Positions 18,536 through 59,527 of a DNA stretch of 64,000 bases are shown here, piece by piece. Numbering within the stretch: position 1 is the first letter of the stretch; every line of letters begins with the position of its first letter. The position numbers and the translations under genes are program-made. Under the pieces are notes generated by a model. It was not told the DNA's origin. It did not search any database and saw only the letters and a list, made by a program, of their open reading frames with translations. This DNA is from Gnetum montanum (lineage: Eukaryota > Plantae > Gnetophyta), in contig MNCI01000808.1 of assembly GCA_015680685.1 (NCBI GenBank), forward strand, positions 452,413 through 516,412, given 5' to 3'.

Positions 18536-19471
18536 GGGACCTTGGTTGAGTATCGTGGATTTTTTCTACTTCCATGACTAGCATGTAACTACCTAGGCCT
18601 TATAAGAGTAGAGTATGATACTCCTTGGCATTATTGGGTAGCATATGAGGCATTTTGATTTGTCCAATCTTAGAAGCTAGTAAATTCAAGCATTTATGTT
18701 TCACCAAGCCCAATGCTATCAATTTTGCTCACTAGTTTCATGTAATTTCAATTTTCATGATGTTTCCAATTTTCATAATAACTATTTGTTGAAATGCTTA
18801 AGTTAGTCAAACCTTATCTTTGGTGTTTAAGCTTTATGTCAAGTGTAATCTTGGTTAGATTCATGAATTTTGGCTAGCTTATATTTTGGTTTCCATTGTC
18901 AAAGTTATCAATTTTTATGTTTAATTTGTTTTAATGGTAATTCATATTCTACAGGTTCAATGTTTTGCTTGTTTATGGGCTCTTAGTGAATGAAGATGAT
19001 GGCTTCAAAAAAATTCCCCTCTTCCCATGATTTGATCTAAGCTATTGATGGTGGTAATGAGTTATTGTTAGGTGTTATGGTTACTAGATTATTGCTATAT
19101 TTATGGCTTCAAGGACTATGTATCATACCTTTGTATTACACTGTGCAACAATGGGTATGGTCACGGGTTACCTAGCCTTATTTGACATTTATAATATTGT
19201 GCATTAACTAGCTTAATACTATTCTTTGGCTACTAATTTTTAGTTTTTTATGTTTTGTATTTTTATAGATTTTATATTTTTATGTAAAAATATTAAAACT
19301 GAAAACACTGATAAAAGGAAAGCCTGCAAAGTAAAACTCTATAGTGTAATGGAATAAAATGAAAACTGTAAAACCAAAAATAAACATGCAAGTAAAGATT
19401 ATAACCAATGTTATTAAGTAAATAGGCCACATGTAAACACTAGGAAATGAAGTAGATGCTATCCTATATTA

Positions 19472-19617
19472 CCAATTTTAGGACCTAGTAGGCCATGGCT
19501 TCACCAGTTTGAGGCCTTGGCAGGCCATGATTTACTAATTTTAGGCCCTAGTAGGCCACCAGTTTTAGGCATTGGTAGGGCATCATGTTGCTAGTTTTAG
19601 GCCTTGGTAGGCCATGG
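19472..19617 (-). repeat. Degenerate ~30-bp tandem repeat after the protease of F
   Basis: Units such as catggcctaccaaggcctaaaactagca (minus strand), similar to the ggcccgcaacggcctaaaactagta unit of C. Confidence 0.7.
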
Positions 19618-19749
19618 TCATACTCATCTAGAAAGTATGAGATAATTTCAAGAAATCATATAAGAATAAAATGAATAGTAAAAAATGACATCAGGCTACA
19701 AAAGTAAATAAATAAGTGTTGAGAAATGAAGGGATAAGCTATCTATTGT

Positions 19750-22700
19750 GAATTTGTTTTTTGATATCTAACAGATCAATAGGTATCTCATGCATAATGT
19801 TAGTTTCACCATTCCTCTTGTTCAATATGACAAGTAGAAAGTGTTCTCATTAATCTTCCAATATTTTAGCATTGACAATGTTAGCATTATTTTCATTGTT
19901 ATTGTTGTTATTGACCCTAGCTTGAGTATTAGGAGTTTTATCTTGAAACTCTACCTCCAAACCCCATTTAATGCTGACATTGTTAACAGATGAAAAAAAC
20001 ATATTATCCCCATGATTGACAACTTTATCATCTTTGTATGATAAATGACTCTCTTGGTGTATGGGAGATGAGACTACTTCAAGCTTAGCCAACCATGGTC
20101 TTTGTAGAATCAAGTTAAAACTAGATGTTTCTTTAACCACTAGAAAGTTGGAAAATGTGAAAAACTATTTCCTAGCTATAAAGTCTAATGAGATAGAATC
20201 TTGTACTACTACCTACAATCCCTTTAATGACTTGAGCATAAAGGTGGAGGTTTCCTAGATATTTTTAGCTGGGCCCAGTTTCTTAATAATTGTAAATGGT
20301 CTCACATTAGTTTCTACCCCATCATCTACATGGAAAAAATGAATCTTGTACTTCCCAAAGTCTATGGTAATGAGGAGAGGAGTAGATAGCACTTCTATTT
20401 TGTGAGTCAAATTTTCACCTCACTATCATCAAAGATAAGTGTGGGATGATGTTGGTTTTTACTAAGTGAAGTTTACTTAATAACAAAGTGAATGGATTCT
20501 TTGTTAGTAGGCATGTATCCATTCAATGAAATAGAAGTCAACATTTAAGCTAGCACATCTCTATGAGTAGGAGAGATGATGAATAGGTCATATAGATTCA
20601 CGTATGTATTCTTTTATTTTGGATTTAGCTTGTTCCATTTTTGCAAGGAAATTTCTATTATTGGATGTAATTTATTAGCCTTAGTAGTTTTAATTTCCTT
20701 CATTCTTCCTAGAATTTTTGGCTCATGTCTTGACATGCATTGCTCGAATCCCTTGCTTATGACTATTTTATGATTCTCTGTTGGTTGATTTTTTGATCTA
20801 GTTTGGACAATAGATTTCACAAGTAGAACTATTCTTAATGTAGGTTTTGGTGGGTTAGCTTGCTTCCAAACTTTCTATTATTGGCTATCTTCAGTGGGCT
20901 AAGTCATTGGTTTGGTGACATGCTATTTTCATTACCATTGTAGTGGTGATTTCTTGTTACATGGTGATGACATTATAAAGGTATTAGCCATAATGGATAA
21001 ACATTAGTTATGAGTTGTCATAAGTTTTTTGTTGATGGTGGAGAAACTTTGATAACAAATGGTTTCCTAGCTTTAGTTGGATTGATAACGCATTTTTTAG
21101 GTTATTATGTTAATGCTACTAAAGGTACAATATGTATGATAAAAGGGTCTTTAGGGGTTTGGGGTGGTAATACCCATATAAAAACATTGCTCTAGGATTT
21201 AGATTCTAAGACCAATGTGGAACCTTGATGATAAATGATTTTATAGAAGGACTAGATTGATGGGATGTCAGAAATGGGGCTATTGTATAACAGTTATTGT
21301 TGGTATTTAGAGAATTGGGTTCATTCAACACTAGCTCTTCCTAATTAATCATCTTCTTGACATCATCTTTCACTGCAAGAAAAACATTAGTATCATGACG
21401 AGCTAATTGATGATAGTGGAAAAACCTATTAAGATGAAAATACTTTGATAGTTTTGAATCATCTTTGGTTACCATTGTTGGATGACTAGCTATCTTACAT
21501 AAATGATCATGTCTCTTATGAGCTTCCTCAAACTATTTATTATGTTAAATTCAATTCTCTTTAAGTAACTATTCTAGAAGCTCAAAGGGTTTCACAGGAA
21601 ACTTTATATACTTGGTTATGTCCTTGCATTCAAAGTTAGGTCTTAGTTCATTGAAAGTATACAAAGTAGATGGTTCAGATGGGTCAGAAGATGTGTTGTG
21701 TGGTACAGAATTTTGTCTTGCTAATTGTTTGGGATTTTTGTTACTATAGCCATGATTTCTTATGCTTGTTTGGTCTAATCCTTGTCCCTTCTAATGTATT
21801 GGTTTTTCTAGGTTACATAGGCTGAATCATTGATATCTTCTTCCACCTTTTCTATGTTCTTAATTTGAGAAAATTCTTGACTAAGTAACCAAGAATCAAA
21901 GTAGTACATTTTGAACTTGATAAAATCATTAATAGCTCCTTTGAAGATGGCTAGTAGTTGGAGTTTAGAGATAAGCTCAGAAATTTCATTAAATATTGTA
22001 TTCCATCACTCAATAAACTTCTGGATCAATTCAAGTGGCCCCTGATTCACCTTCATAAGTCAATATAATGTCATATCAAACTTCAAGTTGTATTTAAATT
22101 GGTTGACAAATTGTTCTATCAAGTCTTCAAGGGAGAATACAAAACCTCTAGGTAAGGTTTAGTACCAAGGCTAAGTCTTTCCTTTTAGGAATATAGGGAA
22201 AATCTTTAGTATCATTTGAGGCCATGCTTGCAACAGGAGGTACTCATACTAAAAGGTGACAAGATGTGCATCAAGATCTCCTTCACCATTATATTTGATG
22301 AATTTTGGAATAGTCATGCTTATAGGTAATGTGATTTGAAGGATAGCAAGATTGATAAAATCATCTTAATAGAAGTCCATAACCTTCATCGTTTGAGTGG
22401 CACTCAACCTTCAATTTTTGCAGCTTCTCTGTAAGGTCCTAGATTAGTTGAAAGGCTTGATTTAGGCCTTGTGGAGATCTTAAGGACTGTCCTTGTGATT
22501 GATGAATAGTTGGTGATTGTGAATGGGTAATGGTATAAACTGAAGGGATATGTGATAAACACTATGGGAGAATTAAATAGAGAGAATGATGTTTGTATAG
22601 GGACATGAGCAACGAAAGGGGTATTAGAAACAATGAGATTAGGTGAAGCGTGTGGAATTTGTATTCTAGTAGAAGGACCAACAAAAACTATAAAAGTTTG

Positions 22701-23300
22701 AGGCATGGAGGCTATTACTAGTGAATCTTGAGGTACTGTACTGAAAGGTGCTAAATTAGATAGTCAAGTAAGTAAGGAAGTAGGTTGAAATCTTGGATTT
22801 GTAGAGGTCACAAGGAAATTTTGGTTCACTACTGAAGCTAAAGGCATAGAGTTTAACATGATCACCTCTAGGATAGATCATTACAAAAGGTTCCGTAAGA
22901 ACATATCTAGCGCATAATAAGCTCTAAACTCATCTTAATCCTCTGGGTTAGATACTAAACTAACTATTTCACTCACCTTACTATCATCATCTATACTTAC
23001 TAACTGCACTAATAGGTGTATATAGAATCTAGATAATTCAATACAGTCATATGTTGAAGAAATATATTCCTTTCCATCCTTGTGGATCAACTCATATTGA
23101 TGCTTAGAGTCGAACTCTTTGGATGGGATATGTATGTCCACATGGATTTTTATGCATATGAAGTTGTAATATTATTTCTTAATATTTACATGAACTAAGA
23201 TAAGTCTTAACTGCCTATGCGTCACTACGGCTAGGTCCTTAAAGATCATATACATGAGTAGATTCCTAGTTTGAGGCCATGACTACTATGTTGTATGGTA
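19750..23300 (-). pseudogene. gag: gag-protease pseudogene of element F
   Basis: HQYELIHKDGKEYISSTYDCIELSRFY (22935-23141) matches C's HYELIYKGGQDFTPTAYDYIPLTKHY. SFNLILQRPWLAKLEVVSSPIHQE (19850-20140) matches C's GFNLILGRSWLAQLRAVSSSIHQE. Confidence 0.85.
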
Positions 23301-27873: not shown

Positions 27874-29469
27874 TGAAACACCGTAGAAATTGTGGATCGG
27901 TCTGAGGAGAAGAATCGTAGTTCAAGCAAAAGTCCACAGCAGAAATCCAGAAGGCAGAAAAACCCAAAAAGGGAGGGGGCAACTTCAAGTTTTCAAATTC
28001 CTTAAAAAATTCTAACTTTGTTGCTCCTTACGCTACATTACGAAATCTAGCGTTACTCCTTATGGTACATTACGCAACATAACATCATTTCATTCAGCGT
28101 GATTTTGCTCGATGTGGCGAAGGTAGCTTACCGAAGAAATGAAGTTAGTAGAAATTCGAACTTCAGCCAATATGACAAGTCCAAGGCCTAAGTCGTGGTC
28201 TACAACTTGTCGCGTATTCCATCAAGTCTTTTGATCAGAATTGCATTTACACTCCATTAAGTAGAGCAGCGTAATGAGCCATGAGAAGATCCAAGTCAAC
28301 TTTAAAGGAAGCACTGGTCGCTTTACGCTTTATTACGTTGCACAGCATATGCAAGCGTAACATGCTAAAAAGTTAAGCACTTTTACACTCTATAACGCTC
28401 TGCAGCATAAATAAGCGTAACATGTGTGAAATCCATTACATTACGCTCTGCTACGCTACACAGCGTAAATGAGCGTAATGTGGTATAAAGTCAGCTAAAG
28501 CAATACCAGATGCGCACTTGTCATCCATGCACTGCAATACGCTCATCAGCATATCACAGCATAATCACGAGGTGGTTTCAGCAAGAGTGTTTTACAGCAC
28601 ATCTTGCCCTCAAAGCGTAATATGATATCGCCAGTTTCAACATAAAAATTTTCCAAGTCAATGGTGTTCGAAAGTTCGAGACATGTGTCATCGAGACCGT
28701 GCCTTCCCATATGATGCTGAACTTATAAATACCCTAGTTGACAAAGAAAAAAAAGGACTTTTCCCAAAAAAGACAGAGCATAAGGCATTTTTTGAGCATT
28801 AACAATGAGAGCAAGCAATCTTCTTGGTGAAAAGACGATCCTCTTCATTGGCGGTCATCAGCAACTTTAACAAAAAATTACCGAAGGCAAAAGGAGCAGA
28901 TCAGAGATTGAGAGATCGTCTGGTGTAATTGGCAAAGTTTACTGATCAGAAGCAGTTGATCAATAGACATCCAAGCTTGACCTTCCTTGCATTTCACTTC
29001 TGGTTTATGAGGTAGATCAACCTCCATTTCGTTCTCCTTTTTTTAACAGTCCTCTTGTTGCTTTGTATGTGCCTCGCACAAAGATAAGCGAAGTTTGCCA
29101 TTAGAACATTACATCTAATACATTTAGCTTTTGAATCAAGCCATAGATCTTGGAATTATGCATATCCCCTGAATTTTGTTTTCCTTATCACATTGATATT
29201 ATCGTTATTTCGAATTTTTTTTACATTGTTTTCTACTCCTTCTACGATTCACCGAATCAAATCATTCCGTGAAACATACGCATAAATATGCATTACCGCG
29301 ATATTCGATAAATTTACTGATTAATTAAGTCCCTGTCTGATTGACAAGACCGTTCAGGGCACCGTGGATTCGTTTTCCCTAGCACGGCCCTCGCACGGAT
29401 CTGTGGTTAAAACTATGTACGTGGATCTTCGTTCAGAATTTCCAGCGACCAACGTTTTCCGTCGTTACA
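27874..29469 (+). repeat. 5' LTR of element C
   Basis: TGAAACA...TTACA; colinear with 43738-45333 (about 8 mismatches in the first ~127 nt, counted by eye); TATA cttataaata at ~28722. Confidence 0.97.
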
Positions 29470-29475
29470 GGTTTC

Positions 29476-29504
29476 TAGCGCTAGAATGAGGGGCTTGAAC
29501 CTCC
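29476..29504 (+). promoter_or_regulatory. PBS complementary to the 3' end of tRNA-Asn (extended)
   Basis: tagcgctagaatgaggggcttgaacctcc vs the reverse complement of the plant tRNA-Asn(GTT) 3' end, TGGCGCTAGAAGGAGGGCTTGAACCTCC (tRNA sequence from memory). Confidence 0.8.
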
Positions 29505-29726: not shown

Positions 29727-32700
29727 ATGGATTTTGCACATATGACTACTACCGCTATGATCGCTGTTGACATGGGTGCCACAACCGTAAATCCCAGCAC
29801 CGTTCCCAAATTGGTTTTCAGCGCGGCAAGACCTCACGGACCATCGTGTCATTCATTGAGATTACAAGGTAGGGATCCTTCATTCACCATCTTAACTCCT
29901 GAAGAATATAACTTCATTTGCATCAATATCCAGGCAAACCTCGCCCTTAGCCGAGCTGAGATGGAGGCAAAACAACATTATGAGTTGATCTACAAAGGGG
30001 GTCAAGACTTCACCCCTACCGCATATGACTACATCCCCCTTACTAAGCATTATCATGAACTTTTGTCCCAACTGGTTATGGCTAGGAATCGGATTACACC
30101 ATCTATTCTAGAGCCACAAAACGAGGAGGAGGAGGAAGATGAATTCGTAGCTCAGTCTGAACGCACGGATTCATATCATACCCTTAGCCCCCACACATAT
30201 GCGAATCCCCTATTTCATCCCCTCACCAACGAAGTTGCCCATCTCAACCCGATCATGGCCACCCAAATGCACATTCCCATTCCCATCGCCCCACAGGCCA
30301 CCACGCAACCCTCGACCTTGCAGGTGCAAACGCCACCTCAGAGTAATGTAAGAATAATTTTCTCACCGCATGTAATCAGGATTCCATCACTGATACCTGC
30401 GTCCATTTCCCCCCATTTCATTCACCAAGTGCAGGTCCATACCATGCCTATAACTTGCCCAGTGCAAAATCCGATGCAAACCTTATCATCACAGCCTATT
30501 GCAAGTTAACAGATTGCACCTACCATTCAATCGTAGCGATCTATGCAACAACCTATGGCTGGTCAGTGGATCATGCCTGTTGCTCACAACGGTCAATCTA
30601 TGTTCCATGGTGTGCAACCCTTGGCTGCATCTACCATGCATGTCCCATAGGTGATTGCAGAACATCCTCACACCTTCCATCCTACACATTCAGGGACGGC
30701 CAACTTGTCCGCACAGCCTATCGGGTGGTGGGTTCCGCAGGTGACTTCGTCCACGGGGACAGTGCCCGTCGCACCATTTGTTAGCCAAGTTACCACACCC
30801 TTTCCATTGCCTAATACTACTCTCCCAATCAAACCCCTTGCTCCTCAGGCATTGACATCGTCATCAACAGGTCTGGACCAAGCTTTCTCGCTTATTCAGA
30901 CTCTCACTGAGGAAGTCAAGCACCTTAAAGCTACTACCTCTGATACAATACAGGTCATGGATTTCTACAATGATGACCCCATCAGCCCAGTAGTCCCCAT
31001 GTTGTCGCTGCCTCTAGGGATGTCTTTGCCCCATTTTACCAAATACAACGGGGAAGGTGATCCTAATGCTCACCTAGTTACCTCTAGATTTGAATCCCTA
31101 CTACTACAAAAATGGCCTCATACAATTATCTGTGTCTTCGCAATGTCTCTGGCAGGTAAAGCCTTGGACTGGTACCGAGCACTCCCTCGCTTTTCCATCT
31201 CAACCTTGGAAGAACTTCTAACACAATTTGTGACTCGTTTTAAATACAATTTAAAATCAAAGGTCACATTAGATCAACTTATGGGGGTGAAACAAGACCC
31301 ACTCGAGGAAGTCCAGAAGTTTATACAACGATGGAGCGCTAATCTGAATGAAATCCATGAGCCTATCACGAAAGCCCACCTATTGGCTATTTTCAAAGGA
31401 GCAGTTAACGAATTCATCAAGTCTAAACTATATTACCTCGCCCCTCGCTCCCTAAGTCAGGCCTTCGCCCAAACTAAGAGCATCCAAGATGCTGCGGAGG
31501 CTAGCAAAGACCCAACGTATGTGGCCTATAAGAACACTAATAGCAAGGGTAAAGACAAAGCTAAAGCAACAACGACGAAAGTAGCTGCATTGGTCGAGGG
31601 TGCCAAAAAGAAGAATAACAAGAAGGCACCCACAACGCTTGATGAGACCACAGCTAGTGTAAGAAGCACCAGCCAAGAAACACCCACCCCTGAACAGCCC
31701 TCATAAGCAAAACCGAACTTCAAGCATAAAGATCTTTCGAAATATACAGCCATGCCCATAAAGCATTCGAAACTACTGAAATAATTATTAGGAGCAGGAT
31801 ATATTCAAAACAAGAAAATATCTGAAGAAGCTCTGAAACTTCACAGGCATCATTGTGAATTACTGAGGAACCCTTCTTCGGCTCTACCCAATGAACTGCC
31901 AGTCCCTAAGTCTTTCAAGCTGGATTGTTTTTGTGACTACCACCAGTTGTGTGGTCATGATACCGATTATTTCTAGGCATTGAAGGATGATATTCAATGC
32001 ATGATTGACAATGGTTCTTTGAAATTAGATAGCAGTAGTCCGATGCGTCCCGAAAACCAGGCGATGCATGTGTATAAAGACCCGTTAAATGCAAATGATG
32101 CAGCGTACAAAATCAACATGGTAAGTACGGATAGTGAGGGGAAGGTACTACCTAAGAAACCCTTTGTGTTACGTGTACCTATCAGTTCACCCTAGGGGGC
32201 AAGTTCCTCACCAGTAGTTGGCAGAGCCTCGAGGCCACCCTTTATTATTAGGACGCCTTCTCAAACTGTAACTCAGTCACCTACTTACAATAAAACCGCG
32301 GCCATGCCTGCGCCTACCCCTAAGGCACCTTTTATCCTTAGGGTGCAAAGACCACCAGTTCTCCCTTTTATGCAGGAGCGAGTCTCTAAACCTCCATCCA
32401 AAAAAAAAGGGAAAGAGAAGCGCCAATTAACGTAGCCAAAGACCACTCTACGCTAGGGTTTGCTAGGCCTAGGCCCCTGGCTTCTATAGCTCCGTCTACA
32501 CCTCCTGAGCAAGAAAAAGGTACAGAAACACAGCCACCTCCCCTTAGCAGAAAGAAACACAACCCTCTGATCGATACTATTCTGCCTCGGGAAATTCATC
32601 TTCTAGGGCGAATGGAAGAAGAAAGGGGAGACAAGCAACCCAGCCAAGAGCGGGATCTCCTTGACGCATTTACGGAAGTCAAGCAGGCTCTAAAAAAAAG

Positions 32701-33500
32701 AACATAATATTGAGCCTCTATGATTTACTTATGACGTCTCAAAAGCACCGGGAGGCTATGGTCCATATGCTGACATCCATACCTGCGGATGAAAGCTTAC
32801 CAGCGAAAGAGGAAGCGATACATGCTGTCATGTTTCCCCCTACTGCTGGGTGACCTAAACCTACCTCGTTGACCTTTCATGATGAATCCTTCAAAGATGA
32901 TCCTAAGAAAGGTTGGGTGACAACAGAACCCATGTTCGTCACCATCCAGGTTGGTCGACACCGAATCCAGAGGGTGCATGTTGATGACGGTGTAGCTAAA
33001 AATGTCATCCCTTACACTATAGTGGATAAGTTGGGCCTGGTCGATTAGATCAGTCCCACGACGACATCGTGCTTAAAGTCATTCAACGGGGAACAGGTTC
33101 AAGTCAAAGGGATGGTACACATCAATTTTGTGGCAGGAGATCAGTTCCCAACAAATGCCACATTCATTGTTGTTGAGGAGATGCCTGGATTCAATCTGAT
33201 CCTAGGGAGGTCTTGGCTAGCCCAACTGAGGGCAGTTTCATCATCGATACACCAAGAGATACATCTACTTTATGCAAGGGGAGAGGTAGTGATACATGGT
33301 GATGGAATAATGCCTGGAACTGTCAATAACATAGAGGAAGAATGGGGTTCGGAAACTGAAATGCCCGAAGACCAAACCCATGTCCAAGTTTTTGAATAGG
33401 TCGAAATGACCAATGACAGCCTGGCCTGGGTAGACCTACCATTTCAGGGAGAGGAGGATGATGTGAAGGAGCTAGGTCATACATCTCCTCACTTTCATTA
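29727..33500 (+). pseudogene. gag: gag-protease polyprotein of element C (premature stops, at least one frameshift)
   Basis: ORFs 29727-30509 and 30651-31706 are in the same frame. Retrotrans_gag core (KYNGEGDPNAHL, FAMSLAGKALDWYRALP); Cys/His knuckle FCDYHQLCGHDTD ~31930; protease IQRVHVDDGVAKNVIP ~32965 and FNLILGRSWL. Confidence 0.92.
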
Positions 33501-33691
33501 GTTTTGCCATTTACGCTTATCAGTTTTGACCATCATGCTTGTTTAGTATACATATAGTTATGTCTTTTATCAATTACGCCATTTACGTTTCCTAGTTTAC
33601 ACCATTTATGCTTTCCAATTTCTATTAGTTAAATCGATGCAATTACTCAAATATTTACATTTTTATCAACTACATTCCCTGATATACGCAA

Positions 33692-33985
33692 GTGGCCCGC
33701 AACGGCCTAAAACTAGTAGTGGCCCGCAACGGCCTAAAACTAGTAGTGGCCCGCAATGGCCTAAAACTAGTAGTGGCCCGTAATGGCCTAAAACTAGTAG
33801 TGGCCCGCAACAGCCAAAAACTAGTAGTTGCCCGCAACGGCCTAAAACTAGTAGCGGCCCGTAATGGCCTAAAACTAACAAAGGCCCAAAATGTCCCTAA
33901 ACTAAAACATCCCATTTCTATTTTTATGCAAGACCTGTATTTTATGCAAACGCTATGTGATGGCCCACAATGGCCTTAAACTAGC
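33692..33985 (+). repeat. 27-bp tandem repeat (gtggcccgcaacggcctaaaactagta), ~7 copies plus degenerate copies
   Basis: Directly visible; produces the VVARNGLKL repeat in the ORF track. Confidence 0.95.
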
Positions 33986-34170
33986 AACTCCATCCAATGG
34001 TTACAATAACACCACAGTCTCAAAACCCTCAATAATTCTATTTATGCTTTGTATAAATAAAAACACAAAATTAAAACAAAAAAAAACATAGAGAAACTTT
34101 TGTGATTAATCATGCTAAAATTCATATTGTCTTTGTTCCATTTCACAAATAAAATTGTGCGTAATCACAA

Positions 34171-37100
34171 TTACGCATCCTCTCCACCACCACAGTCTCC
34201 CGTATCTCTTAATTTCGCTTCTAAGCCTTGCAAGTCATCTTCATATGGGCTGTACCTTATAGGAAGTATCCCCTCATCTTCGCGGGGTGCTTCCACTAAA
34301 ACTTGCTCTCCAGGTCCACAATTCGCGTCGTTACGCTCTCCTTCCTGAACACATGCCCCATCCTGTTCACCTCCTTCGTTTGTTTCTTGTAACTACATAC
34401 AAAAAATATATCAGCAAAAGCTATGATAGGATAAGTCAAAACACAAAAAAAAAAAATATTTCAAATTCAATAATATTGAAACTTATTAGCAAAGGGGAGT
34501 TGATCTAAGCTAACCCATAGACGTTGCATAATCTCGTCTTCGGTCAACTCAGACCATACGCCGTTCCCCAAGTTAGTTCCAGCCTTAAGCTTCCCCTTCT
34601 CGACGCTAGTCCACCGAGGAGGTTCGGGGAAGAAGGTAGGGACTATGGTCTCTCCCCCAGGAAGAGTAATCTCTCTTTCTGGGGATGTGCTCACCGTCAC
34701 ATGCTCCTGGAACTTCTTGAAGGCCTCAGACGCACCAATGACATCAAGGAACATTCGCAAGGATTGAGCTTCAACAACGGAATCACGATAAAGCTGACGA
34801 TAAGCGACACTGTCTCGCTTATACAGATGCTTATGATCTTTTTCTGTCTGTCCCCACTCTTGGACACTTGAGCAAAAGTCCTTCCAGTCTTGATTCTTCT
34901 GGTCTAGGAGCTCTATTTGCATCCTTTGCTCAATTAATTCGTGACTAGTTTGCACGTTGTTTCTGACTGTGGTCCAATAGCGAGCGTACTCAATCATAGC
35001 TGTTCGCCAGTCCTTTTGACCCATTTCTTGAGCTTGTAGGAATTCACATCACGATCTTAAGTCTCTGACCTCTCTGGTCAGAGACATCCTTTCCTTCTCT
35101 GATCTCTGCAGCCTCTTCCAGAGGTCTTCATTGACATTCTGACTCTCCCACAAGGAGCGGGTTGAACGTAATGCACATTTATGCATCTCTTCGTAAATGT
35201 TGCGTGGAACGACTATTGCTTCTGATCCAGGTTCGGTGGTGTCCAAGTCAATGGCCTCCGTAGAGTCCCATCGAAAGTGAGCTCCTAACAACAAATATTA
35301 GATCAAATGTAATTACGCACTGTAACCTAATAAAAAAATAAGAATGGAATAGTCGCAGCATACCAGCGCTAGGATTGATGCGCTCCAAGCGCCTAATCAT
35401 ATCACTGATGATGCCTTCCATGAAGGAAAATTTATCGGGGAAGTCGCCCCATGCTCTGCTTACAACGGTGGATGGGGAATCACCTTGTTCATCTGTGGCA
35501 TAATTAAGTCAAGAATTTTGACTAATAACAGAATCACTTAAAAAATTTTCATACACTGACTACCTCTTCCTGTCCTAGTAGGAAGTGCGTCAATGTTCTC
35601 CACTTCTATTCTCTCTTCGTGCACAGGGCTCTGTGCGTTATTAAATCTAGTAACTGGGGCCTCCTCTTCCAAAACTGGGGCCCCTTCCTCACGCCGTAAC
35701 ACCATAGCCCCTGTTTCAGGGGTCAACTGCTTTGTAGGTCTCCCTGTTTCTGTCATATAATACACTTAAATAATTCAAAAAGTCTTGAATAAGTCACGAA
35801 AAATAACAATTACCATAACTTGTACTCTATCCTCTCGCTTACCAGGTGGAGGCTTACTCTGCTGAAACCTGACTTGCACAGTTCTTCCTACGCCTCTTGC
35901 CGGCTCCACAGGCGTTTCGGTTCGAGGCCTTTTACGCTGAACCGAAGCATCCACTATTTCTGCCACTAGTCGCTTCCCCCATGATGCATCACCCATGTAA
36001 GAGGGAAGCACCCCACCTACGGTGTTAGGACCTTGCATTCGAGGTGCCTCCACATCCTTAGTTGTTATAGAAAATGACTCCCCAATTCCCTTCAGAGGAT
36101 CCTGTGACCGGGTAGTGCCAAAGATATTGGAGATCCAGGGTTTGGATAACTGGTCTCGGTCCTATTGCACCCAGACCCCATTCCTCTGGACCACTAGAAA
36201 TTTGGCAAAACGCCAGAGGCAAGCTATGAAAAAAGAAAAGTGCACACTGAAATGGGACTCAAGCTTTTGGCGGAGCCTGATCATCTCAGTGCGTAGCCCT
36301 TCGGTGAAATAGCTTGCCCAGTCGAATTGGGTCCCTTCCTCTATCACCTCTCGCATGATACGAGCTTGTTCTATGGTGAATAGCTTCCCCGCAAGAGTGT
36401 TCTGGGGAAAGCTTGGGCTCGGAAGAGGGGCTAGATGGTTTTGGCAACCTCCAAAATGATCTTTTCGTAAGGGATCCCCTTCATGTCCTTCTTGGTCCCC
36501 AGCCACTCCTCCAGCTCTTCTTGACATTTGAGGCTCCTCCTCGACTTCTCTTCTATGGGAAGACCATCAGAGGGGATGCCAAAAATGTCAGTGAACAGCT
36601 GAGCATCAATGTCAAAATATACACACACGTTACGTATGTGTGTACAAAAACACTCAGCCCCCTCACTGAAGGAGTTGACCAGGGTTAAAATTTCACTTGC
36701 GGGGACATCAGGGGTTACAGACAAGAATAGATGCATCAACCTTGCCTCCCATAGCTTAGTAACCAATGCAGCTGAGGCCACCGCATGGCCTAGCCAGCAT
36801 TGTGCTTCCTTTATATCACCATAGCGGAAGAGGAGAGTGTTTGCCTCGTGGACGGAAATCGTGATAGTCACTTCCCGAGATTCCCTCACTGATAGCACAT
36901 GTCGAGACAATGTTAAAAAATTTCTCAACCAACAATATTCTGTAACTAATTTTGATGATGAAGCCTTACCAGGTCCAAATGGCAAAGGAAATGGAGGGAG
37001 CTTCTGCTGCACGTCTACGAGAGTGAGAGGAGGGTTCAAAGTCCATTCCTCATGTAACCATTTGAGGCTCTGACAATTCTTGAAAGCATCGGAGTAACGG

Positions 37101-38185
37101 GTGGGATACTCAGGAATCTCGAAGGCCATTTGCCGCATGACATCAGCACGTACGTTACTAGTGGATGTAAACTCATTTACCTCCCTTTCGATCAGGGACA
37201 ATGTATCATTGTTGCCCAGCAACCCACTCTCGTTGATAAAGAACCTATATCATATAGCACATTATTATCCAGTTCAAACATTATAAAATATATTAACATC
37301 ACTGCAAGAAAAATGACTTACCCGCCTGAGTAAAACACCGTGCCAGGTGGATTATGAAAGTAGGTTGAGACATGATGGGCTATGAACAGGGTGTTATAAG
37401 CATGATAACAACTAAATCTAGGCATCTCCCAAATCCAACTTAAACGCCTCAACCCTTTGGCGCTAAGTTCGTGGTCCTGGGGCCGACCAGTGTCAATAGC
37501 TCCGTCTGTCAAGAAAGCCAAAATACCTTGTGTAGAACCGACTAAAAAATGTTCCAGAATGGCCACAGCCACATCGCCCGACAGATGTGATCAAACGATG
37601 ATGTAGTAGTTATGCAGAAAAAACTGCAAGAACTCCCGCACATGCTTCCGGAAACATATTGCTTTCCCCTGTAGGCGGGTTTGAGGGGGAGGAACATTGG
37701 TTGCGTGAGGGTTTATACAACATAAAACCCTGACTATGTCCAAAACAATTAGGACAAGTTTCACCAGTATACTGTACAAAATGTAAACATGTTATCATTA
37801 GAAGAAAATCTAAATCTAGATTTCATTGCATGCTTAGAAAAATTGCAGATTACGCTCTAGCCGTGTAGCCAAAATCACTTAAACGCTTGCAACAGTGCAA
37901 GGTTTGTCTCAGATAATGGCGATGAATGCAATACCGCTGTCTAAACCCTTGTTCTAATACAAGGTCTGTATTCTTAAAACGCTAGTTTACGTAGATGACT
38001 AAAAATGAATAAAGAAAAGAAATATATATGATTAACAGCAATGCGAATAAGCAAGGGATGGCCTACCGATTCAAGGGGTTAACATCTCGTACTTCAACCA
38101 AAGCTTGCGAAGTGCATTGCAGACTCCCCTGCACTTCGTCAATTTTCGCCAGTTTAGCATTCTTTCCTCTCACCTTCGACGCCAT
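34171..38185 (-). pseudogene. Antisense 8-exon accessory gene (~1065 aa): FCP1/NIF-like HAD domain + extra-ORF-like domain + coiled coil; 4 premature stops and 1 frameshift in this copy
   Basis: Exons 38185-38067, 37771-37322, 37244-36970, 36888-35843, 35749-35564, 35492-35364, 35284-34515, 34392-34171. All introns are GT..AG (295, 77, 81, 93, 71, 79, 122 nt). Splice phases are consistent once a 1-nt deletion near 36405 is allowed. Introns 1-4 are shared with the copy in D. Confidence 0.85.
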
Positions 38186-38593
38186 GGTCACAGTTCTATG
38201 AACCTTCGCAAATAACGCATTGCTATCTTTTGCTCTCTCTCTCTCTCTCTGTAATAGCTGAATTTGAATTCGCAATAGCCAATAGCCTATTTTCGATATG
38301 AACCGCTTCCTTATAACATACAAGACTAATCGACTTGATGCCCAATTAAAGCGGGACTTTCCTAGATGCTGGTGTCAACATGAGATGGAACCTGAAGATC
38401 AGGGCATTAATGCGGTAGATATCGCATGGAGCATTGTCTGAAATGACATTAAACTACTACACCTTATCACTTCGTAATTGGGTCACATTAATTACAGGCT
38501 ATTCACGATATTCAAAATTCAGTTAGCTCTTCACGCTCAGCAACGTCATACCATACCTTCTCCTAATCACTTGCATATTTGACAATTTTGTAG

Positions 38594-41500
38594 GACAGTT
38601 GGCAAATGTACGCAACTTTATCAACACCCCTAGCTTTAACAGGCCCATATGAGGGAATCGTTAGAAAATTTGATCTTGAACTAGTAGAAACTAACCTTTT
38701 CCTCAATGACGCAACCATATCCACGTCAGAAGCATCTCCAGACCGGCCAGAACAATCGACGCGCACGCTAGACCTGGAGGCTGAAGACCCCCTCAGCGAG
38801 GTCTCTGTGGTTACGCATAAAGGTGAGAACAAAACTCTTAAGGTTTGTTCTCTACTAGACCAAAAGGCACATGATAATATAAAACAAGTCCTCTAGAATA
38901 ACGTCACAGTATTTGCATGGTCATATGAAGATATTCTAGGACTAGATCCAAGACTAATTCAACATAACATAATCCTAGACCCGCATATCAAAGCGATTAG
39001 GAAAAAGGAATGAAAAATCAAGCTAGAAATCGTGCTAGCAGTACGTGATGAGATCACTAAGCTGTACCAGGCTGGTTTTATTCGCGCGATCGATTGCTCA
39101 GATTGGGTATCTAACATTGTAGTTGTTCCTAAGAAGATCGAAGGGATACGTATTTGCATAGACTTCCGAGACTTGAACAAAGCTACAATCACAGATAACT
39201 TTCCGCTACCGAGTATCGACCAACTAGTAGATACAACCGCCGGGCATGCGGTTTTATCCTTCATGGATGGTTTTTCAGGTTATAATCAGATTTGCATTAA
39301 CCCAGAACATCAGCTGACCACAACATTCATGACACCTTGGGGGACCTTTTGTTACACCATGATGCCTTTTGGCTTAAAAAATGCCAGAGCAACGTATCAA
39401 TGAGCTATGACATACATCTTTAGTGATTACCTCCTAGGAAGACTGAATGATTATGTTGACGATATAGCTGTTAAGTTTGTAAAGTCAGAGGATCATCCAA
39501 AGGACCTAGAGTTAGTCCTTAAAAGATGCTCTAAATACGACCTCCAGCTCAACCCAAAGAAATACATATTCAGAGTCAAAATCGGATGCATGCTGGGGTT
39601 TGTGGTGTCGAAAACTAGCATACGAGTAGACCCTGATAAAGTCAAAGCCATTGCTGAGTTGACACCTCCTACAAATCTCAAGCAATTACACGGGTTACAA
39701 GGGTGATTACAGTTTATCAGGGGATTCATCTCAAAATTAATAGATAAATTACACCATATGCAACATCTACTTAAGAAGGGTGTTAATTTCGAATGGACAG
39801 ACAATTGTCAGCGTGCGTTTGACAGCCTAAAATAAGAACTTCAACGCTTGCCAACAGTATTCCCACCACAAAGGAATCAGCTGTTTTACATTTACCTCGC
39901 AACCTCAGACGTATCCCTAGCCGCATTACTCTATCAAAGGAGAGGCGATGGGTCAGAAGTACCCATCTACTACTTGAGTCATGCCCTATGTGCATATGAA
40001 ACAAGGTACAATGAAGTAGAGCATAATTATCTAGTGTTAGTGTTTACGCTCAAGAAATGTAGACACTATCTCTTCCATAGCAAAGTCAACAATATCTGCA
40101 AGAATAACATCCTGAGAGCTATTACGCACAACCTATATGAAAGTAGCAGGATAGCTCGTTGGAAAGCTATCACGGAAGAATTTGATTTGCATTATATTGG
40201 CCAATCTTCTACGAAAGGCCAAGCGATAGCCGATCAAATAATGACATCACCTATTGACAGTTAGGGAACGATAGAGCCAGAATTTCCCGACGAACATGTA
40301 CATAGTATAAGTCCTATTCTAACAAGCCTCGAAGCAACATTACATTTTGATGGAGCTTCAACTGCTAGAGGCGGTAGTTCTGCCACGGTCATTACGCTGT
40401 CACCTGAGGATGCACGTCTGCACGCCTACCGCTTGACCTTCCCCTGTACGAACAACGTGGCAGAATACGAGGGGCTCCTCAGAGGGTTATTAACAGCCAG
40501 AGAGCTTAACATTCAACACCTGGCGATTAGGGGTGATTCAATGCTCATGATAAATCAAATCATAGGAGTCTATGCCTGCAAGGCCATACATTTACAGCCC
40601 TACTGCGATATGGCTAAAGATCTCTTGAAGCAATTCATAGCAACCAATGCCCAACACGTGCTTCGAAATGACAACACGCTAGCCGATGCACTGGCCACAT
40701 TAGCATTGAATGTGCCACCACACTTGTTTGACACCTATCCCACCTTAATGATAGAATGTGCTGATCCTGTCATTCAGACGATGCAAATATCTTCATTGCT
40801 CGCGGATGAAATGCCGGAATGGTACGATAACATTAAAACTTACCTTCTGTATGGCGAACCACCACACAAGCTAACACACGCACAAAAATATGCAATCCGC
40901 AAGCAAGCTAGGCAATACGTCATCATAGGAGATAGTACCCTCTGTAGACGCTCTTTCGATGGTGTATTACTTACTTGCATTAACAAAGACCAAGAACAAC
41001 GAATAGTTGGCGAGGTTCACAAGGGACTATGTGGAGGACACGTAGCCCCACGGGCTATGGCCGGTAAAATCTGTCGCTAAGGGTATTATTGGCCGTATAT
41101 GGAAAAATATTGTCTCACAAAGGTTAAAACGTGTGACATGTGTCAACGTCACGCAAATCTTATACACGTGTCACCTACAGAATTACTTACGACCTAGATT
41201 ACATGGTTCTTCCAACAATGGGGATTAGACATCATAGAGCCTATCGCACCAAAATCTTCCGCAAGGCATAGCTTGATAATCACCACTACTGAATATTTCA
41301 TGAAGTGGGTTGAAGCCATCCCTTTATAGAAGATCACATCTCAACAGGTCTGCCATTTCATTTTGGACAACATCATAACCAGATTTGGCCTCCCAATGAC
41401 TATCGTGACCGACAATGGGCCACAATTTAGCAGTGTGGAAACCAAATCTTTTTGTGATAGCTTAGGTATCAAACAATCTTTTTTCTCGTCTTATTACCCA

Positions 41501-42061
41501 CAAGAGAATGTTCAAGCTGAAGCAACAAATAAGGTCATTATCAATTTTCTTAAGAAAATGCTCAGCAGTAACAAAAGACGATGGAATGAAAGGATCCTCT
41601 ATGTGCTATGGGCATATCGTACCACATGTAGAACAACTACAGAAAATACACCCTATAGCCTAGTCTATGGATCTGAGGCGGTGCTGCTCCTCGAATTACA
41701 AGTTCCTTCTTTGTGGATGGTTCTCTCCATGGTTATAAATGACTCTCAACACACTGAGTCTCGGATCATGGATTTGGATTCAGTAGAGGAGAAGCGAATA
41801 CAGATGCTTGATACGATTGAAAAGTATCAAGATAAATAGAGGTAGAATCATCATCATAATCTTCAACAACATCTGATTAAGAAAAAAGATTTGGTTCTCA
41901 AGGCCGTTTGTGAACCAGTAGGCAAGTTCTCTGCAAACTGGGAAGGCCCTTTCTTAGTAACCAACATGTATGGCAACGATGCATTCAAGCTAGCAGACAT
42001 CAATAGCAACAAGTTATCAAATTGCGTGAACCACATATACCTGAAGTGGTATTACATCTAG
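38594..42061 (+). pseudogene. pol: pol of element C: RT-RH-aRH-INT (premature stops)
   Basis: RT (WVSNIVVVPKK, CIDFRDLNKA, SFMDGFSGYNQI, YVDD ~39452); RH (IYLATSD, PIYYLS); aRH (LHFDGAS, CTNNVAEYEGL, RGDS, N..ADALA); INT (HKGLCGGH, CDMCQRH, WGLDII, TDNGPQF, AEATNK, WEGPF). Confidence 0.96.
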
Positions 42062-42099
42062 CTGCATATCCAGTGTTAACATCAGGCGCAACGCCACCA

Positions 42100-43737: not shown

Positions 43738-45333
43738 TGAAACATCGTAGAAATTGTGGATCGATTTGAGGTGAAGAATCGTAGTTCAAGAAAAAGTCCA
43801 CAGTAGAAATCCAGAAGGCATAAAAACCCAAAAAGGGAGGGGGCAACTTCAAGTTTCCAAATTCCTTAAAAAATTCTAACTTTGTTGCTTCTTATGCTAC
43901 ATTATGCAATGTAGCGTTACTCCTTATGCTACATTATGCAACGTAACATCATTTCATTCAGCGTGATTTTGCTTGATGTGGCGACGGTAGCTTACCGAAG
44001 CAATGAAGTCAGTAGAAATTTGAACTTCAACTAATATGACAAGTCCAAGGCCTAAGCAGCAGTCTACAACTTGTCGCATATTCCATCAAGTCTTTTGATC
44101 ATAATTGCATTTACGCTCCATTATGTAGAGCAGCGTAATGAGCCGTGAGAAGATCCAAGTCAACTTTAAAGGAAGCACTAGTCGCTTTATGCTTTATTAC
44201 GCTACACAACGTAAGCAAGCGTAACGTGCTAAAAAGTTAACCACTTTTATGCTCTATAACGCTTTGCAGTGTAAATAAGCGTAACGCGTGTGAAATACGT
44301 TACATTATGCTCTGCTATGATACACAGTGTAAATGAGCGTAATGTGGTATAAAGTCAACTAAAGAAATATTAGACGCACATTTGTCATCCATGCGCGGCA
44401 ATACGCTCATCAGCATATCATAGTGTAATCACGAGGCGGTTTCAGCAAGAGTGGTTTACAGCACATCTCACCCTCAAAGTGTAATATTATATCGCCAGTT
44501 TCAACATAAAAATTTGCCAAGTCAATGGTCTTCGAAAGTTCGAGACACGTGTCATTGAGACCGTGCCTTTCCATATGATGCTGAACTTATAAATACCCCA
44601 GTTGACAAAGAAAAAAGAGTACTTTTCCCAAAAAAGACAGAGCATAAGGCATTGTTTGAGCATTAATAGTGAGAGTAAGCAGTCTTCTTGGTGAAAAGAT
44701 GATCCTCTTCATTGGCGGTCATCAGCAGCTTTAAGAAAAAATTACCGAAGGTAAAAGGAGCAGATCAGAGATCGAGAGATCATTTGGTACAATTGGCAAA
44801 GTTTACTAATCAGAAGCAGTTGATCAATAGAAATCCAAGCTTGACCTTCCTTGCATTTCACTTTCGGTTTATGAGGTAGATCAACCTCCATTTCGTTCTC
44901 CTTTTTTTAACAGTCCTCTTATTGCTTTGTATGTGCCTTGCACAAAGATAAGTGAAGTCTGCCATCAGAACATTACATCTAATACATTCAGCTTTTGAAT
45001 CAAGCCATAGATCTTGGAATTACGCATATCCCCTGAATCTAGTTTTCCTTGTTGCATTGATATTATCGTTATTTCAAATTTTTTTTACATTGTGTTCTAC
45101 TCCTTCTACGATTCACCGAATCAAATCATTCCATGAAACATATGCATAAATATACATTACCGCAATATTCGATAAATTTACTGATTAAGTAAGTCCCTGT
45201 ATGATCGACAAGATCATTTAGGGCACCACGGATTCGTTTTCCCCAGCACGGCCCTCACACGGATCCGTGGTTAAAATTGTGTACACGGATCTTCGTTTAG
45301 AATTTTCAGCGATCGACATTTTCCGTCATTATA
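43738..45333 (+). repeat. 3' LTR of element C
   Basis: Same length as and colinear with the 5' LTR; followed by the GTAGT TSD. Confidence 0.97.
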
Positions 45334-45338
45334 GTAGT

Positions 45339-55015: not shown

Positions 55016-55419
55016 CTGCCAAAGGCATGCATTCTCAGTTTAGATATGGGATTAGCTACCACATAGCTAAACGTCGTTTTAGCTGAGGTGTTGGCAAGGG
55101 GTTGGAGGATGACAATATTATGGCTGGGCCACAATACTGCTAGAACTCTAGAGGTGGGCACTGGCCAAGGAACTACCGTTAGGGTGGTGGGTTGTGGCGA
55201 TGGTAGGTCCAGAGGGCCAGTGTGATGCCATACAACATCTCTGGAGGATCAGCATGATGCCAAGGGTGGTGGCGTTGCATGTATTGCAGACCATGTTCTC
55301 AGTGCATTGTGAACTACATTTTGGAGTTGCAACATCCCACCCCCACGTCAGCACTATGCATGCTTGTTCAATGTGTACTTGGCGTAGATGTGTGCTAGGG
55401 ACGTGATGTGATCCTAGTT

Positions 55420-55635
55420 TAAAGTCCTGATGGACTATGTGCTAGTTTAGAGTCCCAGCAGACGTCTGTGTTGGTTTAAGGTCCCAACAAACCGTACATG
55501 CTTGTTTTACGTCGTAGTAGATGGTTGCTGCTAGTTTAACATCATAGAAGATGCTACTTGTTATTTTTTCTAGTTTAACGTCATAGCGGATGATGCTCGA
55601 TGCCGCTAGTTTAACATCATTGCGAACACTGCTCA
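55420..55635 (-). repeat. Post-integrase tandem repeat of element D
   Basis: Minus-strand units ..atgacgttaaactagca.., homologous to 42100-42590. Confidence 0.75.
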
Positions 55636-55648
55636 TTGCTACCATGCT

Positions 55649-58600: not shown

Positions 58601-58783
58601 AAATCTATGGTTTGAACTAGATGCTCAGGCTAGTCTGGGGATGCTTCTAAAGATGCTATGGTGTTAGCTGTGGTCAACGCCCAGTCAATTAGGTCTGGGT
58701 TTAATTGTCTTGCGAGCTTGCCATGTGGACCTGCTAGGGCTAAAGGCATGGAGAGATTGCGATGAATTTCCATTTTTTTTAAC
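55649..58783 (-). pseudogene. pol: pol of element D: RT-RH-aRH-INT, with an internal deletion of ~0.3 kb in aRH
   Basis: SFMDGFSDYNQI, YMDD, IYLAISD, LHFDSTS, CTNNVAKYEGL, WVEAIPL, NWEGPY. At ~56860, CIQHFAKHIKAYL fuses mid-aRH to the INT N-terminus relative to C. Confidence 0.95.
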
Positions 58784-59527
58784 CTGTAAATATGAGACGA
58801 AAGCTTGGTTAAGAGGCACCTGTTGGTAGCAATCATGTATAGAGAAAACTTGCAAAGTAATGAGATGTAACATAAGGATTACAATTTTTCCAGTTTAAAG
58901 TCATGGCAGACCATTATGGCATGGAGATGTAGAGCTGCTAATAGGAAAAATGCAAACTATCAACATGAGAATGTGAAACTGCTAAGGAGAAAGTGTAAAA
59001 CTGCCAATGCGAGAATGTGAGATTGCTAGTTTAGTGTCATTGCAGACTACAAACGTCTAACAGATCAAAACATGCTAGTTTAATGTCTTTTCAGATCACG
59101 GAAGTTGCAACTGAGCTGGGGTTTGCTAGATTAAGGTCTTTTTGAACTGGTCAGAGTGCAACTATGCTACGATTGCTAATTTAAGGTCTTTTCGGATAGG
59201 TAAAATTGAAAATATATTTTTTTCTCAAGAAAGCAAGTAGTTAGCTTGGAGCATGTCAAAGTTTTAATGCTAACAGTGCTACGATGTTGTGGTTGGCATG
59301 CTACGCTGTACGGTGCACTGTGCATTAAATGGAGAGAGAGAGTGGAAATTTTCCCTTTTTACCATTATGGACATAAATAGGGATTAGAACCTAGTAAGCT
59401 TTTCATTCTCACTATAAGAGAATAGAGCCCGATTCGGAGCATAAGGCCATTTCGGAGCGATTGTGCTAACAGCGAGCAAGGTGGTTTTCTGTACAGTGAC
59501 AAGGAGAAGAGATTTGCAAGTAGAACG

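Follow-up and report, generated by a model that had tools for sequence, protein, structure and literature searches.

How does a retrotransposon express pol when some 5 kb separate it from gag-pro? An element in a 64,000-nt stretch of Gnetum montanum DNA (contig MNCI01000808.1; hereafter the window) raises this question. The original prediction put the end of the protease frame near 33500, had RT-leader coding resume near 38594 directly after ttgacaattttgtag, and assigned an antisense gene to the gap. All of this was borne out: the frame closes with a TAG at 33499-33501, the last nucleotide of ttgacaattttgtag is 38593 and a pol-frame ORF runs from 38594, and the 5,092 nt between them, closed in all three sense frames, hold a predicted eight-exon gene on the opposite strand. 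We find it reasonably probable that this spacer is removed as one Ogre-like intron, yielding Gag-Pro-Pol; the antisense gene with its several introns is of greater interest than this intron.

Results

The element, here called C, is a Ty3/gypsy retrotransposon of the Tat type, present at full length (17.5 kb) on the forward strand. Its LTRs (27874..29469 and 43738..45333) are 1,596 nt each and 91.4% identical (K2P 0.093); the 5′ LTR starts with TG and ends with CA, the 3′ LTR terminus is TA in this copy, and the TSD GTAGT stands on both sides (27869-27873 and 45334-45338). Just inside the 5′ LTR is a PBS-like sequence (29476..29493), presumably of the Tat type, and a purine tract (~43725-43733) precedes the 3′ LTR. 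The gag frame opens ~260 nt past the LTR. The gag-pro region (29727..33501), homologous to that of element A below, matches Pfam Retrotrans_gag at ~31134-31403 (E 6.5e-7) and, under the cut-off, Asp_protease_2 at ~32950-33220 (E 0.0035). Stops and a frame change interrupt it in this copy; a stop in the protease frame at 33397-33399, ahead of the terminal TAG, is one among several lesions of an old copy. The pol region (38594..42061), also with stops and frameshifts, comprises the RT leader, RT (RVT_1), RH (RT_RNaseH, E 1.4e-18), aRH (RVT_3, E 2.4e-16) and INT (Integrase_H2C2, rve), and only ~1.7 kb lie between it and the 3′ LTR.

Two relatives lie on the reverse strand of the window. Element D (55350..62600) has pol and at least 3.8 kb of similar spacer with a homologous antisense gene, and is interrupted before the protease, near 62.6-63.4 kb, by the PPT and LTR of another element; since its protease and donor are outside the window, D tests the acceptor only. 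Element A (19450..23168) is heavily mutated and consists of gag-pro followed by AT-rich sequence and a tandem array; downstream of its gag-pro we detected neither pol nor an antisense gene. Between C and D, synonymous sites are saturated (pS 0.83 in RT), and both pol and the antisense gene are under purifying selection.

In a quick, midpoint-rooted RT tree, made with no curated reference set and with 10 partial RT rows dropped, C and D fell beside Ogre/Retand as their own clade (SH-aLRT 100) on a long branch; support for the angiosperm groups without C and D was 87, and pine-containing groups branched apart. The RT is only ~45-51% identical to named angiosperm sequences. Eighty metagenome loci are relatives at 43-49%, none of which matches the antisense exons or the C RT leader, and a search of viral contigs with the RT gave no homologue. 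The domain order RT-RH-aRH-INT and the RT tree support the Ogre analogy of the original prediction.

The spacer (33502..38593) is non-coding on the sense strand, with 83-102 stops per frame over its 5,092 nt, which rules out frameshifting or read-through, and a longest open run of 116 codons. Protease and RT are 5,759 nt apart in C versus 227-1,816 nt (median 1,217) in the 49 of 80 related metagenome loci where both were found, many of which form one legume-type family and so are not independent; the other 31, including the long loci L044, L045 and L047, had no protease match and were omitted. The gap in C exceeds chance or simple decay. Directly past the gag-pro stop T content rises from 24% to 46%, as it does in Ogre-like control loci. 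A 27-nt tandem array of 6.9 copies lies at 33691..33877, and a related array follows the element A protease (~19470-19614).

The predicted antisense gene, on the reverse strand, has eight exons and ~1,050 codons. Exon 1 (38067..38185, ATG at 38185) has a counterpart in D of equal length (119 nt) and donor at 59528-59646; exon 2 (37322..37729) corresponds to 60203-60612, exon 3 (36970..37244) to 60696-60985, and exon 4 (35843..36888), the most conserved part, to 61070-62205, while the counterpart of exon 5 (35564..35749) begins at 62330. Exons 6 (35364..35492), 7 (34515..35284) and 8 (34170..34392, holding the terminal stop) are predicted from C alone, exon 6 from GT..AG borders, AT-rich flanking introns and a frame open in the expected phase. 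The seven GT..AG introns have a GC content of 0.25-0.35 versus 0.47-0.51 in the exons, and the first four are at the same places in C and D despite synonymous saturation. Amino-acid identity between the two copies is 39%, with pN 0.38 versus pS 0.81 over 553 codons; exon 4 of C has one frameshift near 36410. The original prediction had supposed that the intron was a safe harbour for cargo. Purifying selection points the other way and indicates that the element maintains the gene as a part of itself and does not just carry it along.

Exon 2 contains a NIF-like (FCP1/SCP-type) domain that scores 20.5 bits in D (E 4e-4) and 15.6 bits in C (E 0.013), both under the Pfam cut-off of 21.8 bits; an ESM Atlas result of 0.90, with 30/30 matches to NIF, supports its probable homology to that family. 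In both copies the match to the profile of plant FCP1/SCP-homology proteins (NIF, PF03031) covers the N-terminal half of the domain. Unlike those proteins, the antisense product scores under the cut-off, is fused to element-specific domains and has, in its exon 1-2 translations from C and D, no DxDx(T/V), the catalytic motif of NIF/FCP1-SCP phosphatases. Exon 3 has no notable family match. Comparison of exon 4 with DUF7745 (Ogre ORF1) ORFs by hhalign gave a non-significant E of 0.34, and a further one E 0.13, from very shallow profiles. Exon 7 is helical or coiled-coil-like, with weak Pfam matches to helical families (E 0.13-0.41). Pfam found neither Plant mobile domain/DUF7745 nor Transposase_28 in the gene; the 271-aa ORF of exons 3-4, which reads through an in-frame intron, had no homologue among 1.84 billion representatives, exon 4 had none in metagenome contigs, and PDB sequence searches returned nothing useful. 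Two AlphaFold models had mean pLDDT values of 39.0 and 33.9.

A host origin is suggested by the NIF-like domain and the ordinary spliceosomal introns, and element C is decayed, as might be expected if the spacer were a secondary insertion, of a host gene or a gene-carrying DNA transposon, that disabled pol, so that copies then moved in trans or not at all. We consider this very improbable. D has the same gene in the same orientation and position at synonymous saturation, with selection maintaining both pol and the gene; the related array lies past the protease in A; a search for terminal inverted repeats at the spacer ends found none; and 768 contig pieces of other copies span the spacer-pol boundary.

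A putative acceptor precedes pol in both C and D. In C (38563..38593) it comprises a branch-like CTAAT (38563-38567) and an AG (38592-38593), with a second AG at 38597-38598. D has catatttacag at the equivalent point, as originally noted, with its AG at 58785-58784, and coding homology between the copies does start just past the site (C 38603, D 58770). In each copy a YAG stands directly before the homology, with a branch-like motif 25-27 nt upstream. At position 38591, C accounts for 3,966 of a summed contig depth of 5,078 (45 contigs); other genomic copies mostly have CAG at the site, and five of the six long contig pieces crossing it are gap-free, which gives phase 0. Read literally, the first AG of C is also phase 0, whereas its second AG and the D acceptor, which has an A8 run, are phase 2. 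In two ENA relatives, P0037 and P0132, the translated sequence ahead of the RT leader is rich in pyrimidines and closes with a codon pair compatible with AG.

The acceptor is parted from the antisense ATG by a head-to-head interval of about 400 nt (38186..38562) with (CT)n at 38233-38250, TATAA on both strands at ~38312-38315 and nine sense ATGs. This interval likely contains the antisense promoter, a function that we infer. Could pol come from an unspliced transcript begun here, the AG being no splice site? The antisense gene needs a promoter in the interval, the acceptor motif is unremarkable alone (eight sense sites in the C spacer pass the motif filter and the D site fails it), and RNA reads at the acceptor cross it unspliced, at depth 3 in read set X10 and 1 in X13. 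Upstream sense ATGs, nine in C and sixteen in D, argue against an unspliced internal mRNA, and the branch-like motif and YAG are kept between C and D at synonymous saturation. We judge this reading improbable.

The donor is less clear. The original prediction offered ctag/gtcat near 33475; the GT is present at 33476, but this site (TAG/GTCATA, 33476..33481), being of phase 1, would not join pol in frame at either of the nearby acceptors, and a matrix derived from the 11 donors of the window itself scores it 0.0. Our best candidate is TGG/GTAGAC (33430..33435), phase 0, which would join in frame to pol via acceptor 38593 and remove a 5,164-nt intron. It scores 7.4, the top of 22 GT sites in 33220-33700, a score equalled by chance sites within the C spacer (7.5, 7.3 and 6.9). 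The T-rich stretch sets in ~65 nt past it, and the aligned position in element A is without a GT. In seven of the ten control loci listed a GTAA donor overlaps the gag-pro stop; over the C stop there is none, only a poor TTA/GTTTTG, which would fit the second AG. Other donor-like sites in C lie at 29521 and 38415 (6.6 each).

These last two sites bear on another reading, in which splicing does occur at the acceptor but produces a distinct mRNA for pol, read from an AUG of its own. The donor would lie in the pre-gag 5′ leader or in a short leader whose promoter also serves the antisense gene, and Pol would be packaged without fusion to Gag, as in foamy viruses. The original prediction had named translation of pol from its own start codon as grounds against the intron, and part of this is found: an in-frame ATG, the first in C (38606..38608), lies 12 nt past the acceptor there and 10 nt past it in D (58773), so that the AG-to-ATG spacing differs by 2 nt. 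A G follows the ATG in D and in 2,303 of 2,311 contig depth of the C family; the ENA relatives P0032, P0034, P0035 and P0037 also have Met at the start of the RT leader, none of the seven GTAA-donor control leaders has Met within its first 10 codons, and the head-to-head layout with TATAA on both strands of C would suit such an mRNA. However, P0132 has Leu in place of the Met, which gene callers pick in any case, and the phase difference between C and D is explicable by the A-run of D or the second AG of C. To our knowledge, no plant Ty3/gypsy element packages free Pol, which also counts against this reading, and we regard it as rather unlikely.

RNA reads aligned over 27800-43730 numbered 869 in X13, 342 in X14, 12,285 in X10 and 2,141 in X11, and were mostly <90% alike; X10 and X11 showed a strand bias. 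Among the 15 of 17 joints listed for this interval, none joined protease to RT and none matched an antisense intron, with a depth near the donor (≤1.5 per direction) too low for a test; and none, again with low power, led from the LTR or leader to 38594, a point against the separate pol mRNA. No RNA joint fell in 38490-38760, where X12 contributed no reads, and no loose end lay at 38594 among the 13 of 80 listed. One of the samples, X1, may be the one from which the window itself derives. The 40 of 74 listed differences include none at 38592-38593, which does not prove that the AG is invariant. Joints and loose ends at 34055-34099 were set aside, since they stem from poly(A) reads of other transcripts.

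Discussion

If the spacer is removed as a single intron, unspliced element C RNA would be translated to Gag-Pro and packaged, and daughter copies would therefore keep the spacer; a minority of the RNA would be spliced from a donor just past the protease, for which 33430 is the best candidate, to 38594. The antisense gene would likely be transcribed from the head-to-head interval; facing away from the packaged RNA, its introns would persist through reverse transcription. The encoded protein may combine an inactive NIF/FCP1-like domain with a conserved middle domain and a helical tail; our guess from this domain content is a nuclear accessory factor that binds, and does not dephosphorylate, a host phosphoprotein.

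The element shares with Ogre an aRH between RH and INT, a protease fused to gag, large size, a 5-bp TSD, and non-coding DNA parting gag-pro from pol with an acceptor-like site before the RT leader; in Ogre, by the excerpts consulted, this interval is removed by splicing (PMC6317226, PMC4408406). The C spacer is 19-fold longer than the 274-bp Ogre average given in an excerpt of PMC6317226. The extra gene of Ogre is a 5′ sense ORF, whereas that of C is central, antisense and multi-exon; Ogre is further marked by a tRNA-Arg primer-binding site. C has no PMD-type sense ORF 5′ of gag, while control Ogre-like loci have a 5′ DUF7745 ORF; it has no GTAA donor over the gag-pro stop; and in the quick, midpoint-rooted tree the C and D RTs are not nested within Ogre.

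Retand, Grande and RIRE2 share with C the aRH position and a region of several kb outside the polyprotein that carries tandem arrays and an antisense gene, which in Grande (gene23) has its own promoter (PMC7264820, PMC11963269); the word 'intron' is absent from the latter paper. Their region, which for the most part codes for Transposase_28, follows pol and precedes the 3′ LTR, whereas that of C lies between protease and RT and its gene has seven predicted introns. The antisense PMD(-coiled coil) eORFs of TatIII and TatV likewise pair an antisense extra gene with a helical tail, and exon 4 is faintly like Ogre ORF1; those eORFs are 3′, and the C gene adds a NIF-like domain and has no significant PMD homology. 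The aRH precedes RT in TatII and follows INT in TatIII; C has neither arrangement.

More speculatively, C, D and A may represent an undescribed deep Tat lineage. A 5-kb intron, retained between protease and RT, would there house a whole accessory gene with seven introns of its own; the product, a pseudo-phosphatase captured by the element and related to the Pol II CTD-phosphatase type, may tune splicing, export or silencing of the element. Alternatively, the layout may drive a foamy-virus-like, Gag-independent pol mRNA. We know of no such mRNA in plant Ty3/gypsy elements. Splicing of the spacer would oblige the element to remove a 5-kb intron from some of its RNA and yet export and package unspliced molecules, in due balance; without splicing, its mode of pol expression would be one not known in plant gypsy elements.

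With this gap, Tat elements would have three sites at which extra genes occur, and we found no paper that describes one between protease and RT. Plant LTR-retrotransposon surveys, as excerpted in PMC6317226, place additional genes either 5′ or 3′ of the polyprotein and recognise them as single ORFs with 250 codons or more, and would therefore miss a central eight-exon gene. The locus is also a natural case of a many-intron gene travelling via an RNA intermediate, which it can do because it faces backwards, and its NIF-like domain offers a first testable handle on the role of such accessory proteins. In orchids, too, Ogre-like Tat elements have fixed a host-like enzyme domain (2-ODD/AlkB) in an extra ORF across subfamilies (PMC9289625); there gag-pol forms a single ORF and the residues that bind the cofactor are preserved, whereas the NIF-like domain of C is without catalytic aspartates and lies antisense in the gap between gag-pro and pol.

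Element C Is a Tat Element with Widely Separated gag-pro and pol Frames

The window is made up of repetitive plant DNA that includes several LTR retrotransposons, among them A to D. Element C, a complete yet old insertion of 17.5 kb on the plus strand (27874-45333), has an LTR pair with GTAGT on both flanks; the LTRs are 1,596 nt each and 91.4% identical (K2P 0.093). Pfam matches were obtained for Gag, RT, and protease, and then for RH, aRH, and integrase in that order. The first gag frame contains seven stops and the protease frame four, including the terminal one, and pol carries additional stops and frameshifts. Past the integrase, tandem 30-36-nt repeats (42098-42600) have an AAACTGG or AAACTAG core in common with the 27-mer array that follows the protease.

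The closest RTs are unnamed ENA proteins (53%-56% identity), and named angiosperm RTs reach at most 51%. In a quick, midpoint-rooted RT tree of 99 rows (10 partial rows removed, curated references not included), C and D form a single long-branched clade (SH-aLRT 100) that joins angiosperm-type sequences (SH-aLRT 99), away from the pine-protein groups. C is a Tat element that is Ogre-like in layout. However, it lacks the 5′ sense ORF that is an Ogre feature, its RT is not nested within Ogre, and the mean gag-pro/pol gap given for Ogre in the available text of PMC6317226 is 274 bp, compared to 5,092 nt in C. Assignment to Retand, TatII, or TatIII was rejected on membership.

These 5,092 nt (33502-38593, the spacer) confirm the original prediction that gag-pro and pol are split by about 5 kb. 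The protease frame closes at a TAG (33499-33501), pol is open from 38594, and since the sense frames in between contain 83, 102, and 90 stops, the spacer is not bridged by frameshifting or read-through. The protease-to-RT distance is 5,759 nt in C versus 227-1,816 nt (median 1,217) in the 49 of 80 related control loci, retrieved by RT, in which a protease was found; many of these loci represent one legume-type family.

The protease of D, which is on the minus strand, lies outside the window; upstream, D's spacer runs into a foreign purine tract and LTR at ~63433. This tract and LTR start (62963-63504, minus strand) come from a further element and resemble the 3′ end of C. An LTR-like stretch on the plus strand (16497-16968, start at 16497) is related to the same LTR. 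Element A, also on the minus strand, contributes another protease end; behind it come AT-rich DNA and a tandem array that is a relative of C's 27-mer. This copy is heavily mutated, and neither pol nor an antisense gene was detected beyond its protease.

The Spacer Contains a Conserved Predicted Antisense Gene

Our best-supported new finding is a conserved antisense gene with several introns, which sits between protease and RT and includes a NIF-like domain. The minus strand of the spacer bears a predicted spliceosomal-type gene with eight exons, of which exons 6-8 are predicted from C only, and seven GT..AG introns of 71-333 nt. GC content is 0.25-0.35 in introns versus 0.47-0.51 in exons. If exon 2 begins at 37729, the frames with the fewest stops join arithmetically in phase over all seven junctions, yielding a chain of ~1,050 codons that contains a few stops and, in exon 4, one frameshift.

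Introns 1-4 are at aligned positions in D. Over 553 aligned codons, the antisense genes of C and D exhibit 39% protein identity (pN 0.38, pS 0.81), and their RTs 71% (pN 0.15, pS 0.83). Together, these values and the aligned introns argue that two families at synonymous saturation have this gene in common, in the same orientation and position, and that it has been under purifying selection. The proposal that the spacer hosts an antisense gene is borne out. A disabling secondary insertion, the least probable explanation of the split, fits poorly with this shared, selected architecture of C and D. No terminal inverted repeats were found at the spacer ends.

Exon 2 resembles the Pfam NIF domain, with both matches (E 4e-4 in D, E 0.013 in C) below cut-off. 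All 30 of its ESM Atlas matches were NIF, the top one at 0.90 with 182 of 256 features. The catalytic motif of NIF-type phosphatases is DxDx(T/V). As this motif is absent from exons 1-2 in both C and D, the NIF-like domain is likely inactive. The resemblance of exon 4 to the Ogre ORF1 domain DUF7745 was non-significant, exon 7 is helical-looking, and sequence database searches found no homologues of the exon 3-4 ORF. In exon 4 of D, an 82-nt near-perfect duplication (61651-61812) with the window's sole N between the copies is probably an assembly join.

In the accessible portion of PMC6317226, extra ORFs are sorted solely by position (5′ or 3′) and orientation (forward or reverse); excerpts of PMC4408406 and PMC11963269 also place them at the 5′ and 3′ sites. 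The available text of PMC12786077 describes introns as generally absent from plant LTR elements, Ogre and EVADE excepted, and that of PMC9289625 reports an Ogre-like family with a captured demethylase domain. We found no report of an antisense gene at this central position, or of a NIF domain, in elements of this kind within a literature sample consisting mostly of titles and abstract starts, in which subscription journals are thinly represented. The term NIF is absent from the supplement text of PMC6317226; as this text comprised 17,418 characters, it may cover the domain table incompletely.

Candidate Splice Sites Flank the Spacer

The original prediction held that the spacer is probably a giant sense-strand intron. 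The motifs it cited (an acceptor-like site before pol in C, catatttacag before pol in D, and ctag/gtcat after the protease) all lie where it placed them. In both C and D, a YAG directly precedes the start of their coding homology, and a branch-like motif occurs 25-27 nt before it. Contigs from other genomic copies in sequencing run X1 contribute 768 pieces on 38490-38760. Position 38591 is cytosine in 3,966 of 5,078 summed contig depth, no indel rows are listed for these pieces, and five of the six long pieces that cross into the RT leader are gap-free despite 12%-18% difference, which places the first AG of C in phase 0 to pol. The second AG (38597-38598) is in phase 2, matching the phase of D on a literal reading; position 38598 is adenine in 1,207 of 4,553 contig depth. 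By itself, the acceptor motif appears unremarkable, since eight sense-strand spacer sites in C satisfy a simple filter for a branch motif plus YAG, which the site of D does not. A non-coding block at 38500-38530, ~70-90 nt upstream of the acceptor and not alignable to D, has the region's peak summed contig depth (~11,000) and most of its RNA reads. It could serve C's family as a promoter or splicing element.

We scored donors using a matrix built on the 11 antisense donors present in the window itself, whose training scores are 4.7-12.4. The donor proposed originally, with its GT at 33476, scores 0.0 and, being in phase 1, is out of frame with pol via either AG. The top score among the 22 GT sites after the protease, 7.4, belongs to TGG/GTAGAC at 33430, which is in phase 0 and in frame with the first AG. 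As a candidate donor, 33430 is suggestive only. Three chance GT sites inside the spacer reach 6.9-7.5, A lacks a GT at the place aligned to 33430, and a T-rich stretch starts downstream, at ~33495. In seven of the 10 control loci displayed, the genomic sequence, read by eye, has a GTAA donor overlapping the gag-pro stop and, 150-290 nt on, a TGCAG acceptor of matching phase. The counterpart in C, TTA/GTTTTG at 33501, is in frame with the second AG and is a poor donor.

In six RNA runs, coverage near the donor never exceeded 1.5 per direction and that at the acceptor was 1-3, with most reads <90% alike. At these depths, neither protease-to-RT nor antisense-intron joints were detected, and the handful of reads at the acceptor run across it unspliced.

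Possible Routes to Pol Expression

On balance, the whole spacer is probably removed by Ogre-like splicing. Splicing of the gag-pro/pol gap was found experimentally in pea and Medicago Ogre, according to work cited in the available parts of PMC6317226 and PMC4408406. Unspliced RNA would produce Gag-Pro and be packaged, and a minority of RNA would lose the entire spacer to encode Gag-Pro-Pol. The antisense promoter would likely lie in the 400-nt head-to-head interval, as with Grande gene23, which an excerpt of PMC7264820 describes as having its own promoter. Antisense introns would persist through reverse transcription because the packaged RNA is the opposite strand.

Pol might instead be made from a separate spliced mRNA with its own AUG, an arrangement that we consider unlikely but the strongest alternative. 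An in-frame ATG occurs 12 nt (C) or 10 nt (D) past the acceptor, whereas none of the seven control loci with a GTAA donor has a Met within the first 10 codons of the RT leader. The base after this ATG is G in D, as it is in 2,303 of 2,311 contig depth for C's family. The leader begins with Met in four ENA relatives, although a fifth has Leu at this position. Translation of pol from an unspliced internal transcript is highly improbable, as nine (C) or sixteen (D) ATGs lie upstream. The original reading is partly supported: the split stands, the candidate donor is corrected, and spacer removal by splicing is probable.

In two unnamed ENA Tat relatives (P0037 and P0132), the called proteins start with a translated pyrimidine-rich stretch ahead of the RT leader, which suggests that the same gag-pro/pol split may occur in another deep group.

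Other Elements and Fragments

Element B (47343-55015) has 1.1-kb LTRs that are 88.9% identical, tandem repeats of 62 nt, and a frame resembling gag/protease with no Pfam match; it has no RT and is likely non-autonomous. Between C and B lies a broken exostosin GT47 gene fragment (46561-46900, plus strand; Pfam E 9.6e-23). An old degenerate RT (14061-15257, plus strand), ~30% identical to that of C, belongs to another gypsy lineage. Finally, a metagenome contig (L005:3713-6900; also L006 and L007) contains a Tat-type element with a single long gag-pol ORF, in which a 3′-5′ exonuclease domain (DNA_pol_A_exo1, E 2.3e-15) lies upstream of Gag.
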